Source of the DNA: Stappia sp.
GTDB lineage: Bacteria; Pseudomonadota; Alphaproteobacteria; Rhizobiales; Stappiaceae
Assembly (NCBI RefSeq): GCF_048261845.1
Contig: NZ_JBLXFR010000008.1
Span: forward strand, 17,150 to 81,149
Length of the DNA stretch: 64,000 bases
Reading direction: 5' to 3'
Shown: in pieces, positions 754 through 4,556 of the stretch
How the letters are laid out: every line of letters begins with the position of its first letter
How positions within the stretch are numbered: the first letter of the stretch is position 1
Notes under the pieces: model-generated
Databases searched by the model: none
Told to the model about the DNA's origin: nothing
What the model saw: only the letters and a program-made list of their open reading frames with translations
Position numbers and translations under genes: made by a program

Positions 754-880
754 TCACGTACGGCGTGCGGACGGAAGCCACCAAGGTCCGTTTCCGAGTC
801 CGAGTTTGTTTGATGATCCTGATTACATCGCGAAGGGGCGGAAAGGCCGGCAAAAGGTCGAAGCCGCTGAATGGTCGGTC

Positions 881-1270
881 CTATTCGGTTCGAAGTTGGC
901 TGAGCATTGGGCAAAGGACATTGCCCCGCGAGCAGTTTGAGATCAGCTGCTTCAGCGCGGTTTCAAGCTTCTTCAGTTCGGCGATTTTGGTTTCCACATT
1001 GGCGATATGAACTTCCGCCAGCTCCTTCACAGCCTCACAGTCCGAGGCCCGGTTCTCGGAAAGGTCCAGCAGCATCTTCGCTTCGGCAAGGGGGAAACCA
1101 AGATCGCGCAGCCTTTTCAGGAGGCGCAACCGGCCGACATCATCAGCCGTATAAAGCCGCCGATTGTTGGTTGCCCGCCCCGGTTCCGGAACAACCCCTT
1201 CCCGTTCGTAGTAGCGGATTGTCTCGATACCGACACCGCTCCGTTTCGATGCTTCTCCAATCGCGATCAT
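881..1270 (-). CDS. merR: MerR-family metal-responsive transcriptional regulator
   Basis: N-terminal IGEASKRSGVGIETIRYYER HTH; three Cys (DC, NC, LC) spaced like the Hg-binding triad of MerR; divergent from a merT-like gene. Confidence 0.85.
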   Translation of the reverse strand: MIAIGEASKRSGVGIETIRYYEREGVVPEPGRATNNRRLYTADDVGRLRLLKRLRDLGFPLAEAKMLLDLSENRASDCEAVKELAEVHIANVETKIAELKKLETALKQLISNCSRGNVLCPMLSQLRTE

Positions 1271-1285
1271 GTGATGTCATCCGGC

Positions 1286-1316
1286 TTGAGCCTGTAGTGA
1301 CTACAGGAAGTATGTC
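1286..1316 (+). promoter_or_regulatory. MerR-type promoter/operator
   Basis: TTGAGC (1286-1291), 19-bp spacer, TATGTC (1311-1316), with a perfect dyad CCTGTAGT-G-ACTACAGG (1291-1307). Same architecture as the Tn501 mer promoter. Confidence 0.85.
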
Positions 1317-1367
1317 TGCGGGCACCGAAAGTCACTACGCAATGCCGTGATGGGCCGGGAGATCGAG

Positions 1368-1691
1368 ATGCAGAAATTTTTGAGCCTGAGTTATCTGAGT
1401 TCGATTTCGGCGCTAGGGGTCGCGACCTGCTGCGTCCTACCGATGGCGATGATGTTGCTGGGACTGGGAGGAAGTTGGCTGGCGGTGTTCGGGAAGATCG
1501 CCGCTGCAAGCTACTACGTTCTTGCGATTTCTTCAGTCCTTTTGGCTGTGTCCTGGTTCCTCGCGTTTCGACGGCAGTCGCTTGCAAGGTTGAAGTGGTG
1601 GTTGTCGGGGAGCACGGCGATGACGGTTTTGGCCTGGGTTGTTGTCTTCAACGAGACCCGGATAAACGACTATCTGACTATGCGGATGTGA
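1368..1691 (+). CDS. MerT-like mercuric/heavy-metal transporter
   Basis: About 107 aa, three hydrophobic segments, ATCCVLP..LLGLGGSW resembling MerT TM1 (CC pair). GGAG RBS before ATG 1368; the ORF-track start is 1347. Confidence 0.7.
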   Translation: MQKFLSLSYLSSISALGVATCCVLPMAMMLLGLGGSWLAVFGKIAAASYYVLAISSVLLAVSWFLAFRRQSLARLKWWLSGSTAMTVLAWVVVFNETRINDYLTMRM

Positions 1692-1695
1692 GGCG

Positions 1696-1914
1696 ATGGC
1701 TGATCAAGAAGTAGTTTTGGAAAGCACACTGACTTGTCCCGTGTGCGGTCATGTTGAGACGGAAACCATGCCCACTGGTTCCTGCCAGTGGTTCTATGAG
1801 TGCAAGGCATGTCATGAAGTGCTGAAGCCCAAAGCAGGTGACTGCTGCGTTTTCTGTTCCTACGCGACGGTTCCCTGTCCGCCAATTCAACTGGGTAAAA
1901 CCCGTTGTAGCTGA
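1696..1914 (+). CDS. GDCCVxC-domain small Cys-rich protein
   Basis: 72 aa, 10 Cys: CPVC, CKAC, GDCCVFCSY, CPPIQ. Starts 4 nt after the merT-like stop. Confidence 0.85.
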   Translation: MADQEVVLESTLTCPVCGHVETETMPTGSCQWFYECKACHEVLKPKAGDCCVFCSYATVPCPPIQLGKTRCS

Positions 1915-2014
1915 AGTCGTCGCCCCTCCTCCCCGCAAGGCTTCCCGCCCTGCGATATGTGGGGTCTGCGGGCGGTCAGCCTTGCTCCTGCCCTGCCCGT
2001 TTCACCGCCCTGTT

Positions 2015-2065
2015 CGTGACCGTTCTGTCTGGCATAAATCGTGACCATTCTCGCTAGTGACAACA
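2015..2065. mobile_element. Possible orphan IS terminus (IS481/IS1202-like layout)
   Basis: Two imperfect direct repeats CGTGACC(G/A)TTCT 25 nt apart (2015, 2040), ending in ...GACAACA (TGTTGTC on the minus strand). No transposase in the window. Confidence 0.3.
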
Positions 2066-2120
2066 GCGCGTGTGGTCAGACAGGCGGACACATTAGGTGA
2101 GCGAGCCGGATCCGGCACGG

Positions 2121-2666
2121 TCACAGATCCTGTCCCTGACCCTGGATCCGCCGGAACATGTAGGTGGTCGCGTGCCGTGCCTGGCCGTCCGGGTCGAAGG
2201 CAAAGTCCGGAATCATCCCCGCTACTTCGAACCCGACGGAGGCGTAGAGCGGTTCGGCAACATCGCCGGTTCTCGTATCGAGCGTGACCAGGGTCTTGCC
2301 CAGTTCACGCGCGCGTTCGATCGCGCGGTTCATCAAGGCCCTGCCAATTCCGAGCCTTCGGGCTCCCGGATGAACAATCATCTTTGCGATCTCGCAGCGA
2401 TGCGGCTGATTGGGCGGCATGGCCGTGAGGAGCTGGACGGTTCCGACAGTCTCGCCACCGCGCTCGGCGCCGAAAACCACGCGGCGCCCTGCCTGCACTT
2501 CGGGCCGGACGTCCCGCAACCAGAACATGGCCGCGTCGTCATCGGACACGGGAGCCATGAAGCTGATTGCAGCTCCATCCGCCACACTCTCGATGAGGAT
2601 TTGCGACAGCGCCGCCAGCCGTCGTTCGATAGCGGGGCCGTCGAGTTCGATGATCTGCGTTTCCAT
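2121..2666 (-). CDS. GNAT N-acetyltransferase (Ttr-like)
   Basis: EIAKMIVHPGARRLGIGRALM acetyl-CoA motif, LVTLDT, LYASVGF; GAGG RBS before ATG 2666. Confidence 0.85.
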   Translation of the reverse strand: METQIIELDGPAIERRLAALSQILIESVADGAAISFMAPVSDDDAAMFWLRDVRPEVQAGRRVVFGAERGGETVGTVQLLTAMPPNQPHRCEIAKMIVHPGARRLGIGRALMNRAIERARELGKTLVTLDTRTGDVAEPLYASVGFEVAGMIPDFAFDPDGQARHATTYMFRRIQGQGQDL

Positions 2667-2677
2667 GTGTCGGACCC

Positions 2678-3238
2678 TCAAGCCAACGCAATGATGTAGC
2701 GAGCCGGCTGCTCTCCGGTCTCGAAGGACGAGGCGCCGAACAACCGGTAGCGCATGCAGTCCCCCGGACGCAGGTCATGGCGATCGCCGTCAATGGTGAG
2801 GGCAAGCGCGCCGGACAGCAGGACGAGGTGGTGTTCGTGCCCTGCGACAGCGGGTCGATCATAGGAAATGCGCTGGTTGGGAGCGATTTCGCACTCGATC
2901 ATTTCGAGCTTGAGCCGACCGCTGGGCGGCGACAGCGCACGGCGCGTGAAGCCGTTTTCGCGATCATGCCAGATCCCCTGCTCCGCATGCCGGACGAGCG
3001 GCGGAAAGTCCGGCTCAAGCGGCGAAAGCAGTTGGGAAAGCGGCAGACCGAAAGCCGAAGCCAGACGACCAAGCGTCTCCGCCGTCGGGCTGACGTCGCC
3101 GTTCTCGATGCGCGAGAGCGTGGCGCGACTGACCCCGCTGCTTTCCGCAAGATCCTGAAGGGTAAGATCGCGTCCCGTTCGCAGCAAACGGAGATGCTCG
3201 GCCAGGGCCTTGTGTCGCTGTGTATGGTCTTTGTCCAT
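2678..3238 (-). CDS. XRE-family transcriptional regulator with C-terminal cupin
   Basis: LTLQDLAESSGVSRATLSRIENG HTH; HEHHLVLLSGALAL..LRPGDC cupin. ATG 3238 preferred to the ORF-track start 3367. Confidence 0.88.
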   Translation of the reverse strand: MDKDHTQRHKALAEHLRLLRTGRDLTLQDLAESSGVSRATLSRIENGDVSPTAETLGRLASAFGLPLSQLLSPLEPDFPPLVRHAEQGIWHDRENGFTRRALSPPSGRLKLEMIECEIAPNQRISYDRPAVAGHEHHLVLLSGALALTIDGDRHDLRPGDCMRYRLFGASSFETGEQPARYIIALA

Positions 3239-3399: not shown

Positions 3400-3429
3400 A
3401 AAAATGCCGGGAGATCCCTCTCCCGGCAT
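3400..3429 (-). terminator. Intrinsic terminator of the purine ABC operon
   Basis: ATGCCGGGAGA-TCCC-TCTCCCGGCAT 11-bp stem followed by a T-run on the minus strand. Confidence 0.75.
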
Positions 3430-3461
3430 GTCATTCGGCCGTGACGGCCCGGTTTTGTCGA

Positions 3462-3493
3462 CTGGCCGCCTCTTACTCTGGCCGCCTCTTACT
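3462..3493. repeat. 16-bp tandem duplication overlapping the BMP stop codon
   Basis: CTGGCCGCCTCTTACT x2 (3462-3477, 3478-3493). Confidence 0.85.
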
Positions 3494-4556
3494 GCGGCAG
3501 CTTGTCGTCGATGCCCTTGACGTACCAGTTCATGCCGAGCAGGACGCCGTCATCGAGGATGATGCCTTCGCCGACAGCTTCAGAGCCGTCCTGCTTGAAG
3601 ATCGGGCCGGTGAACGGGTGGAATTCGCCGGAGCGGATCTTCTCCTGCGTTTCCGCTGCCGCCTTGGCGACATCTTCCGGCAGGTTGGTGTACGGCGCCA
3701 TCAGAACCATTTCGGCAGCCAGGCCGCCCCAGACGTCCTCGCTCTTCCAGGTGCCGTCGAGAACCGCCTTGACGCGACCCTTGTAGTAGACGCTCCAGTC
3801 GTCGACGATCGCGGTGAGCTGCGCCTTGGGCGCGAAGTTGATCATGTCGGAGGCCTGGCCGAAACCGATCGCGCCACGCTCTTCGGCAACCTGCAGCGGC
3901 GCCGGGCTGTCCGTGTGCTGGGCGATCACGTCGGCGCCCTGGTCGAGCAGAGCCTTGGCCGCATCCGCTTCCTTGCCCGGATCATACCAGGTGTTCACCC
4001 ACACGACCTTGACCTTGAAGTCCGGATTGACGGACTGCGCGCCGAGCATGAAGGAGTTGATGCCGCGCACGACTTCGGGGATCGGGAAGGAGGCGATGTA
4101 GCCGGCGGTGCCGGACTTCGACATCTTCGCGGCGATCTGGCCGATGATGTAGCGCCCCTCGTAGAAGCGGGCCGAATAGGTCGACAGGTTGTCGGCGCGC
4201 TTGTAGCCGGTGGCGTGCTCGAACTTCACGTCCGGGAACTTCTTGGCGACCTTGACGGTCGGGTTCATGAAGCCGAACGAGGTTGTGAAGATGAGCCCGG
4301 CACCGTCGCGGGCCAGACGCTCGATGGCGCGCTCCGCGTCCGGGCCTTCCGACACGTTCTCGATGTAAACCGTCTCCACCTGGTCGCCGAATTCTTCCTC
4401 GATCGCGAGTCGGCCCTGGTTGTGCTGGTACGACCAGCCGTGGTCGCCGATCGGGCCGACATAGATGAAGCCGATTTTCAGCTTGTCCGCGGCCTGGGCG
4501 CCAACGAGGCCCATGCCAAGCAGCGCTGCCGCCGCCAATCCAAGAACTTTCTTCAT
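3489..4556 (-). CDS. BMP-family ABC substrate-binding protein (purine/nucleoside)
   Basis: Signal peptide; KIGFIYVGPIGDHGWSYQH; GADVIAQHTDS; lies in the xdh operon. Confidence 0.92.
   Translation of the reverse strand: MKKVLGLAAAALLGMGLVGAQAADKLKIGFIYVGPIGDHGWSYQHNQGRLAIEEEFGDQVETVYIENVSEGPDAERAIERLARDGAGLIFTTSFGFMNPTVKVAKKFPDVKFEHATGYKRADNLSTYSARFYEGRYIIGQIAAKMSKSGTAGYIASFPIPEVVRGINSFMLGAQSVNPDFKVKVVWVNTWYDPGKEADAAKALLDQGADVIAQHTDSPAPLQVAEERGAIGFGQASDMINFAPKAQLTAIVDDWSVYYKGRVKAVLDGTWKSEDVWGGLAAEMVLMAPYTNLPEDVAKAAAETQEKIRSGEFHPFTGPIFKQDGSEAVGEGIILDDGVLLGMNWYVKGIDDKLPQ

Follow-up and report, generated by a model that had tools for sequence, protein, structure and literature searches.

Canonical mercury resistance operons, such as those of Tn21 and Tn501 (merR, merT merP (merC) merA merD merE), have a divergent MerR-type regulator, a dyad operator within a 19-nucleotide (nt) promoter spacer, and a transporter with a Cys-Cys (CC) motif encoded first. 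In these systems, Hg(II) is taken from MerT by the NmerA domain and the C-terminal Cys pair of the reductase MerA. Because uptake without MerA should sensitise cells, reductase-less mer loci have long been dismissed as broken. One such locus, the merRTP locus of Tn5563, has been known since 1998, and was described as consisting of merR, merT and merP only, and as 'defective' or 'partial' (PMC4785139, PMC4133298, PMC4447125); a small open reading frame (ORF) in this locus was overlooked. Here we analysed a 64,000-nt stretch of the genome of Stappia sp. (contig NZ_JBLXFR010000008.1; referred to as the window), which contains a triad of genes encoding a MerR-family regulator, a MerT-like membrane protein, and a small Cys-rich protein with a GDCCVxC domain, and contains no merA. 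We propose, with moderate confidence, that the triad works as a self-contained module in which a divergent MerR-type activator controls a metal-inducible operon of two genes, with the GDCCVxC protein serving as the acceptor or buffer for the incoming metal.

The closest described system is Tn5563/Tn5563a (Pseudomonas plasmid pRA2; IncP-6 KPC plasmids such as p10265-KPC), which likewise lacks merA and combines a regulator of the MerR type and an importer of the MerT type with a GDCCVxC gene at the end of the locus. The small proteins of the two systems are homologous, with 62% identity. In contrast to the Stappia locus, Tn5563 contains a MerR annotated as Hg(II)-responsive and a MerP, and is a Tn3-family transposon, whereas the Stappia locus has neither MerP nor a transposase, its divergent MerT-like protein has no cytoplasmic Cys pair, and its regulator has a short metal-binding loop and scores below the MerR cut-off. 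Compared with Tn21 and Tn501, the cassette lacks MerA, MerP, MerD and MerE, and the small Cys-rich protein is encoded at the place of merA. The features of the locus are listed in Table 1.

Table 1. Coordinates of the triad and associated features in the window (aa, amino acids; TM, transmembrane segment; dN/dS, ratio of non-synonymous to synonymous substitution rates)
Feature	Position	Strand	Description	Basis
MerR-family metal-sensing regulator	881-1270	minus	129 aa	Pfam and NCBIfam matches, Cys positions, alignment, dN/dS
MerR-type operator-promoter of the transport operon	1286-1316	+		Sequence reading, uniqueness, conservation
-35 element	1286-1291	+	TTGAGC	
Dyad	1292-1306	+	CTGTAGT-G-ACTACAG, inside 19-nt spacer	
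-10 element	1311-1316	+	TATGTC	
Divergent MerT-superfamily membrane protein	1368-1691	+	107 aa, three hydrophobic segments	Weak MerT matches, TM1-TM2 alignment
GDCCVxC-domain protein	1696-1914	+	72 aa, 10 Cys	NCBIfam NF041374
Lower-GC islet with the triad	800-2065			Identity to plasmid, GC, repeats
Hairpin in the conserved 150-nt 3' tail of the islet	1935-1950 / 1970-1985			
13-nt direct repeats in the islet tail	2014-2026 and 2039-2051		TCGTGACC(G/A)TTCT	

The small protein matched the NCBIfam model NF041374 ("GDCCVxC domain-containing (seleno)protein") with 102.3 bits against a cut-off of 40, the match spanning positions 1-56 of the 58 in the model. The stop codon of the MerT-like gene and the ATG of the small gene are separated by 4 nt, a spacing that suggests translational coupling. 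An alignment of 98 family sequences revealed the invariant residues C14, C17, C30, C36, C39, C50, C51, C54 and C61, all of which are present in the Stappia protein. C14xxC17 and C36xxC39 lie in an N-terminal half that appears zinc-ribbon-like, and C30, C50-C51-x2-C54 and C61 make up the remainder of the pattern. An AlphaFold2 model (predicted local distance difference test score, pLDDT, 82.7) contained two N-terminal β-hairpins bearing the CxxC knuckles, with predicted strands at residues 9-13 and 20-24 beside C14xxC17 and C36xxC39. Structure and profile searches did not reveal any significant solved relative (Foldseek, E at least 0.4; PDB profiles, E at least 0.019), and the best matches were zinc-ribbon proteins. 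No Pfam family covers the protein; with E-values up to 0.1 allowed, Pfam yielded Zn_ribbon_PaaD alone, below its cut-off (E 0.0011), and no metallothionein model.

The GDCCVxC family falls into 3,282 clusters when grouped at 90% identity, has 3,062 representatives (E up to 0.001) at the 50% level, and is present in at least 593 species-level genomes and on 353 PLSDB plasmids. Hosts include Proteobacteria, Bacteroidota, Acidobacteriota, Rhodothermota and Campylobacterales, with 60-75% identity retained across phyla, and the Stappia genome carries a single copy. About 300 of the 353 plasmid matches are one allele, found in Pseudomonas, Klebsiella, Aeromonas, Enterobacter and Citrobacter; in the plasmid example examined, an IncP-6-type plasmid, the gene is flanked by merP and tnpA within a Tn5563-type transposon of the Tn3 family. 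Few small proteins that we have encountered are as conserved as this one, which occupies the position of the reductase and is also carried by hundreds of hospital plasmids. The family is already catalogued, with a curated NCBIfam model and name and annotation by the Prokaryotic Genome Annotation Pipeline, but is unstudied. A literature search for 'GDCCVxC' or WP_003089113 did not find any paper, and one family member is named 'Metallothionein' in UniRef.

The family name includes selenoproteins. We searched metagenomes with the pattern G-D-C-TGA-V, followed by the family profile. Most of the pattern matches occurred by chance: 23 of 80 passed the profile, of which ~7 were full-length members. 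The in-frame, full-length GDCU members scored ~90-125 bits against the profile, and some lie beside merR and MerT-like genes. Their selenocysteine (Sec) occupies the position of Cys51, the second Cys of the CC pair. A preprint on selenoproteins by Haft describes CU motifs as rare, reports them in MerT-family selenoproteins, and takes them as a sign of contact with heavy metals; the GDCCVxC family is not mentioned in this preprint. The GDCU loci were found on metagenome contigs (L111, L113, L119, L132, L135 and L187), and several contain stable hairpins within 60 nt 3' of the TGA.

Domain fusions offered a further view of the family. In three proteins, a two-TM anchor with a Cys-Cys in TM1 is joined to a GDCCVxC domain via a Lys/Arg-rich linker, which puts the domain on the cytoplasmic side, the location of the second Cys pair of MerT. 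MerT- or MerC-like anchors are fused to the domain in two further proteins, and a leaderless HMA domain in one. A 793-aa metagenome protein of different type (P0265) has the architecture PAS-GAF-PAS-GGDEF followed by a C-terminal GDCCVxC domain; this arrangement suggests that the domain may be able to serve as a metal-sensing input to cyclic di-GMP signalling.

Next to the small gene, the MerT-like gene was assigned an ATG start at position 1368 rather than a GTG at 1347, because orthologues are 107 aa in length and the ATG is conserved; a conserved GGGAGA ribosome-binding site precedes it. The encoded protein scored below the MerT cut-offs (20.3 vs 32.9 bits for Pfam PF02411, and 19.6 vs 150 bits for NF010314), and could be aligned to bona fide MerT over TM1-TM2 only. 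TM1 contains vicinal Cys21-Cys22 (...GVATCCVLPM...). There is no other cysteine in the protein, and the TM2-TM3 loop, RRQSLARLKWW, is Cys-free; with just two cysteines, both in TM1, the protein therefore has no counterpart of the cytoplasmic Cys pair found in canonical MerT. The subfamily comprises 209 clusters, and among the best 120 of these, all named relatives are from marine Alphaproteobacteria and almost every member has a length of 107 aa.

The regulator matched three Pfam families above their gathering scores (MerR_1 PF13411, 73.7 bits; MerR-DNA-bind PF09278, 62.9 bits; MerR PF00376, 49.9 bits), with E-values from 1e-20 to 3e-13, and both the N-terminal MerR helix-turn-helix and the MerR-DNA-bind dimerisation helix are present. 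It scored below every NCBIfam equivalog cut-off, including MerR TIGR02051 (109.6 vs 150.85 bits) and CadR-PbrR (102.9 vs 151.45 bits), and these near-equal, sub-threshold scores place it in neither equivalog. The metal ligands of MerR are Cys79, Cys114 and Cys123 in Tn21 numbering. The Stappia regulator contains Cys78, Cys113 and Cys120-Pro121, which line up with the invariant Cys residues of bona fide MerR proteins, and the three Cys and the Pro following the last are invariant in the aligned regulators adjoining GDCCVxC genes. The metal-binding loop is short, with a C-x6-C spacing, compared with C-x8-C in regulators above the MerR cut-off; CadR has a C-x6-C loop.

The operator-promoter lies between the two divergent coding units. 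An over-long 19-nt spacer containing a dyad is a hallmark of MerR-type promoters. The pattern occurred once in the window, with none expected from shuffled sequences, and was invariant in 8 loci from Roseibium, Ruegeria and Silicibacter, whereas the remaining intergenic DNA had diverged. A generic σ70 scan did not call a promoter at this position, because the scan takes spacers of 16-18 nt only.

To place the triad in a wider context, we examined the gene neighborhoods of 80 species-level GDCCVxC genome loci. A MerT-superfamily gene with the CC motif lies just upstream, on the same strand, in 54 loci, 23 of which have a merP gene in between; 45 have a MerR-family gene no more than 2 kb away. 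Bona fide mer neighbors, defined by the curated NCBIfam equivalog cut-offs, were present in two sampled loci, from Acidovorax (MerR, 170 bits; MerT, 197 bits; MerP, 126 bits; locus L028) and Shewanella (MerR, 174 bits; locus L096). A pyridine-nucleotide-disulfide reductase was encoded within 4 kb in 1 locus of the 80, and its C-terminus is not MerA-like. An arrangement merR-merT-(merP)-GDCCVxC without merA is therefore recurrent, with the small gene in the place of merA. Nor was merA found in any of ten annotated plasmid regions around family members. Many members are located inside islands with P-type ATPases and efflux systems of the cation diffusion facilitator (CDF) and resistance-nodulation-division (RND) types.

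We searched for MerA and MerP in Stappia, the assembly of which consists of 132 contigs and is 92% complete. The MerA model TIGR02053 had no match in the window, and its best match in the genome scored 360 bits against a cut-off of 454.45. Three dihydrolipoyl dehydrogenases, a glutathione reductase and a flavin adenine dinucleotide (FAD) oxidoreductase make up the five best genome matches. A distant canonical merA was therefore rejected for this 92% complete assembly, since no match reaches the cut-off. A phmmer search of the six-frame translation of the window with bona fide MerP found no match. The FAD oxidoreductase is encoded on contig C18 (positions 1450-3198 of locus L001, minus strand) and is MerA-like, with a CxxxxC active site. 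It scored below the cut-off for both the MerA model (358 bits) and NF004991 (420 bits), and has neither an NmerA domain nor a C-terminal Cys pair; a role as partner of a soluble CC-pair protein is pure speculation.

An earlier interpretation made from the window's letters and ORFs (the sequence-only reading) had described a complete three-gene unit with an intact MerR operator, a 72-aa protein with ten Cys residues, and no merA or merP in the window. Each of these descriptions was borne out: all three genes were recovered in place, the operator is conserved, the small protein is a member of NF041374, and neither the MerA model nor MerP found a match. The same holds beyond the window, with no merA above the cut-off in the genome, and no MerA-type reductase within 4 kb in 79 of the 80 loci surveyed. 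Its view of the system as the best candidate for an undescribed one was overstated, because the family is curated in NCBIfam and a sister module is the 'defective merRTP' locus of Tn5563.

The triad was also found in other hosts. In Roseibium sediminicola and in a metagenome relative, it is flanked by recX and ddl; it is also present on a Roseibium aggregatum plasmid, adjoining an ISNCY transposase, and in Ruegeria halocynthiae, Pseudovibrio japonicus and Leisingera. Across these hosts, the composition is constant, with a regulator of 129-131 aa (80 aa as called in Leisingera), a 107-aa protein, a gap of 4-5 nt, and a 71-74-aa protein, on unrelated flanks in each case. Pairwise dN/dS values ranged from 0.08 to 0.22 in the regulator, from 0.09 to 0.17 in the MerT-like gene and from 0.07 to 0.19 in the GDCCVxC gene, and all three genes are under purifying selection. 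In Stappia, the triad lies in an islet with a GC content of 0.53-0.57, compared with 0.62-0.65 in the flanks, which shares 91.9% identity with the R. aggregatum plasmid across 1,267 nt and has a sharp right boundary at 2065/2066. No terminal inverted repeats and no transposase fragment were found on its 3' side. The occurrence of the same triad on unrelated flanks, the low dN/dS and the plasmid copy indicate that this small unit is both mobile and functional.

In the scheme that follows, we infer which way the metal is transported, how it is handed off, where it is bound, which metal is involved, and how the cell benefits. A thiophilic divalent metal would be bound by the sensor via Cys78, Cys113 and Cys120, and the metal-loaded regulator would remodel the 19-nt-spacer promoter, switching on both structural genes. 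The MerT-like protein would then move the metal across the inner membrane on Cys21-Cys22 of TM1, and the metal would pass from this pair directly to the co-translated GDCCVxC protein. A direct hand-off is suggested because the MerT-like protein lacks a cytoplasmic Cys pair and the cell lacks MerA. The GDCCVxC protein would contain a structural zinc-ribbon half, with the metal held at C50-C51-x2-C54, where C51 is replaced by Sec in some relatives. The end state would be tight cytoplasmic sequestration of trace metal, as a high-affinity, low-capacity alternative to reduction by MerA. The acceptor role put forward by the sequence-only reading thus gains in plausibility from context (the MerT-linked loci, the fusions and the Sec-containing members), and we keep it as a proposal.

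The sequence-only reading had listed Hg, Cd, Ag, Au and Cu as candidate metals, of which Hg and Cd were retained. In structures of CueR and ZntR, Cys or Ser at position 78 distinguishes sensing of divalent metals from that of Cu(I), Ag(I) or Au(I). By analogy, the presence of Cys, and not Ser, at this position in the Stappia sensor makes induction by Cu(I), Ag(I) or Au(I) unlikely. The inducing metal is probably, though only just, Hg(II); Cd(II)/Pb(II) have a smaller but substantial chance of filling this role. Given the short C-x6-C loop and the CadR, ArsR, ars and orphan contexts of the family described below, Cd/Pb is a serious alternative for this subfamily, with Hg(II) as the best guess for the family as a whole.

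Several known systems are instructive for this proposal. In the pbr operon of Cupriavidus metallidurans, PbrT functions in uptake, PbrD is a cytoplasmic Pb-binding protein, and PbrA functions in efflux. The logic is the same, with a MerR-family sensor controlling uptake and a cytoplasmic binding protein, but no sequence relationship was found and the Stappia cassette has no efflux ATPase. Sequestration ('seq') is one of the pbr mechanisms given in the CH34 genome paper. The bacterial metallothioneins SmtA and BmtA are likewise small, Cys-rich and metal-regulated and contain a zinc-finger-like element, whereas GDCCVxC proteins have a different, rigidly conserved Cys pattern and are tied to an importer and not to SmtB. 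NmerA and the C-terminal Cys-Cys tail of MerA possibly do the same job, that of a cytoplasmic vicinal-Cys acceptor, but are unrelated to GDCCVxC in fold and sequence. No flavin domain follows the GDCCVxC domain, so reduction to Hg(0) is not expected.

If the GDCCVxC protein is an acceptor, the persistence of merA-less mer loci would be explained. Mer-type uptake would then have a second outcome, buffering instead of volatilisation, with a bearing on mercury cycling by marine Roseobacter and Stappiaceae, and the operon would constitute a compact two-gene module for metal capture. A broader proposal, which we put forward tentatively and regard as rather doubtful, is that a widespread MerA-free mode of handling mercury or other soft metals ends in GDCCVxC proteins: a MerT-type importer would supply a Cys/Sec-rich zinc-ribbon protein, which would sequester the metal or hand it to a recipient other than MerA. 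The 'defective' Tn5563-type merRTP loci, carried by hundreds of clinical and environmental plasmids, and the triads of marine Alphaproteobacteria would then be complete systems tuned to trace metal.

A number of observations weigh against the acceptor proposal. The role ascribed to GDCCVxC family members derives from sequence and context, and both the regulator and the transporter in the window score below the thresholds for MerR and MerT. In the neighborhood survey, 23 of the 80 loci are orphans with no transporter nearby. In Hymenobacter, the gene order is ArsR, MerTP, the GDCCVxC gene and CadD; in Ensifer, the GDCCVxC gene is placed after an ars operon; and on plasmid pTX1 of Thauera sp. 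K11 (locus L234, 5051-6204), a bona fide CadR (168.9 bits) and a TsoA-like protein precede it. These orphan, ars, CadR and ArsR contexts imply that neither the partner nor the metal is fixed. The PAS-GGDEF fusion P0265 hints at a role in sensing, and there is a slight chance that a merA was missed, because the genome is 92% complete and in 132 contigs. Introduction of the whole of Tn5563a into 15 strains raised the Hg minimum inhibitory concentration (MIC) in 2, and lowered it at least 2-fold in 6 (PMC4447125). Going by Tn5563-type organisation elsewhere, Tn5563a should include the small ORF. The MICs speak against a strong resistance function and indicate that the sister module is not generally protective at micromolar Hg; if the GDCCVxC protein affords any protection, this would be limited to low metal or to particular hosts.

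Four other explanations for the locus were weighed against the acceptor proposal. The triad could be the decaying, non-functional remnant of a mer operon that was shorn of merA beside the end of a mobile element, an alternative that the sequence-only reading had itself raised with reference to an insertion sequence (IS)-like end. The terms 'defective' and 'partial' applied to the Tn5563 merRTP locus would agree with such decay, as would the lower GC and sharp right boundary of the islet. The present data already contradict this view, and we consider it hardly credible: dN/dS is 0.07-0.22 across the three genes, the operator is conserved, several genera share an identical gene order, 107-aa length and 4-5 nt coupling on unrelated flanks, and the merA-less module recurs in many species-level genomes. 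No evidence for an IS-like end was found at the 3' side, which lacks terminal inverted repeats and transposase fragments. A truncated mer operon was rejected on the grounds of cross-genus conservation, the conserved operator, low dN/dS and the missing IS ends. It is also very improbable that the system has no connection with metals, the CC membrane protein and its Cys/Sec-rich partner acting instead as a relay for thiol-disulfide exchange or selenium handling. Selenocysteine is usually a sign of redox catalysis, and the proteins in the window miss both of the curated mer thresholds, but the three-Cys MerR-family sensor and MerR-type promoter, the bona fide MerR, MerT and MerP, or CadR, of sister modules, and the heavy-metal islands in which members reside all speak for metal.

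The two remaining explanations retain a metal ligand and change the task of the small protein. As a metallochaperone, GDCCVxC could relay the metal to an unlinked non-canonical reductase, an efflux ATPase, or the thioredoxin or glutathione systems. The HMA fusion resembles a trafficking chain, many members lie in islands with P-type ATPase, CDF and RND efflux, and the MerA-like FAD oxidoreductase of Stappia (358 bits, no C-terminal CC) is one candidate reductase; in addition, a chromosomal merA was suggested by the authors for the two strains that gained tolerance from Tn5563a (PMC4447125). We regard such a relay as unlikely, given that no partner of this kind is linked to the gene in the window or in the conserved triads, 79 of the 80 loci have no reductase within 4 kb, and every match to MerA in the genome scores below the cut-off. 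Alternatively, the protein could be a sensor or regulatory module, a switch acting on the transporter or the regulator or, where the domain is fused, on a diguanylate cyclase. Its occurrence as the C-terminal domain of the 793-aa PAS-GGDEF protein, the orphan copies without any transporter, and an identity of 60-75% across phyla, typical of proteins with partner interfaces, are consistent with this. We nonetheless judge it improbable, because the dominant context is directly after, and translationally coupled to, a CC-type transporter, and because membrane-anchor fusions outnumber the lone signalling fusion.

Variant forms of the domain and of its operon were also observed. A 144-aa protein (P0247) contains a diverged GDCCVxC-like domain in tandem (KCCIFCSYGSVPCP and ECCIFCTFGSVRCP), without an equivalent of Cys30. 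In the Thauera pTX1 locus, the middle protein is 132 aa in length and weakly similar to the selenoprotein TsoA (53 bits), and a heavy-metal P-type ATPase adjoins; judging by its sequence, the locus appears to be a Cd/Pb-regulated GDCCVxC version with a different partner. Four Rhodobacteraceae loci (L018, L019, L021 and L023, ~3415-4204) contain a four-gene variant, consisting of merR, a gene for a 128-aa MerT-like protein, a gene for a 70-86-aa MerF-like protein, and the GDCCVxC gene; the MerF-like protein has two helices and a 'CCFTPLLP' motif.

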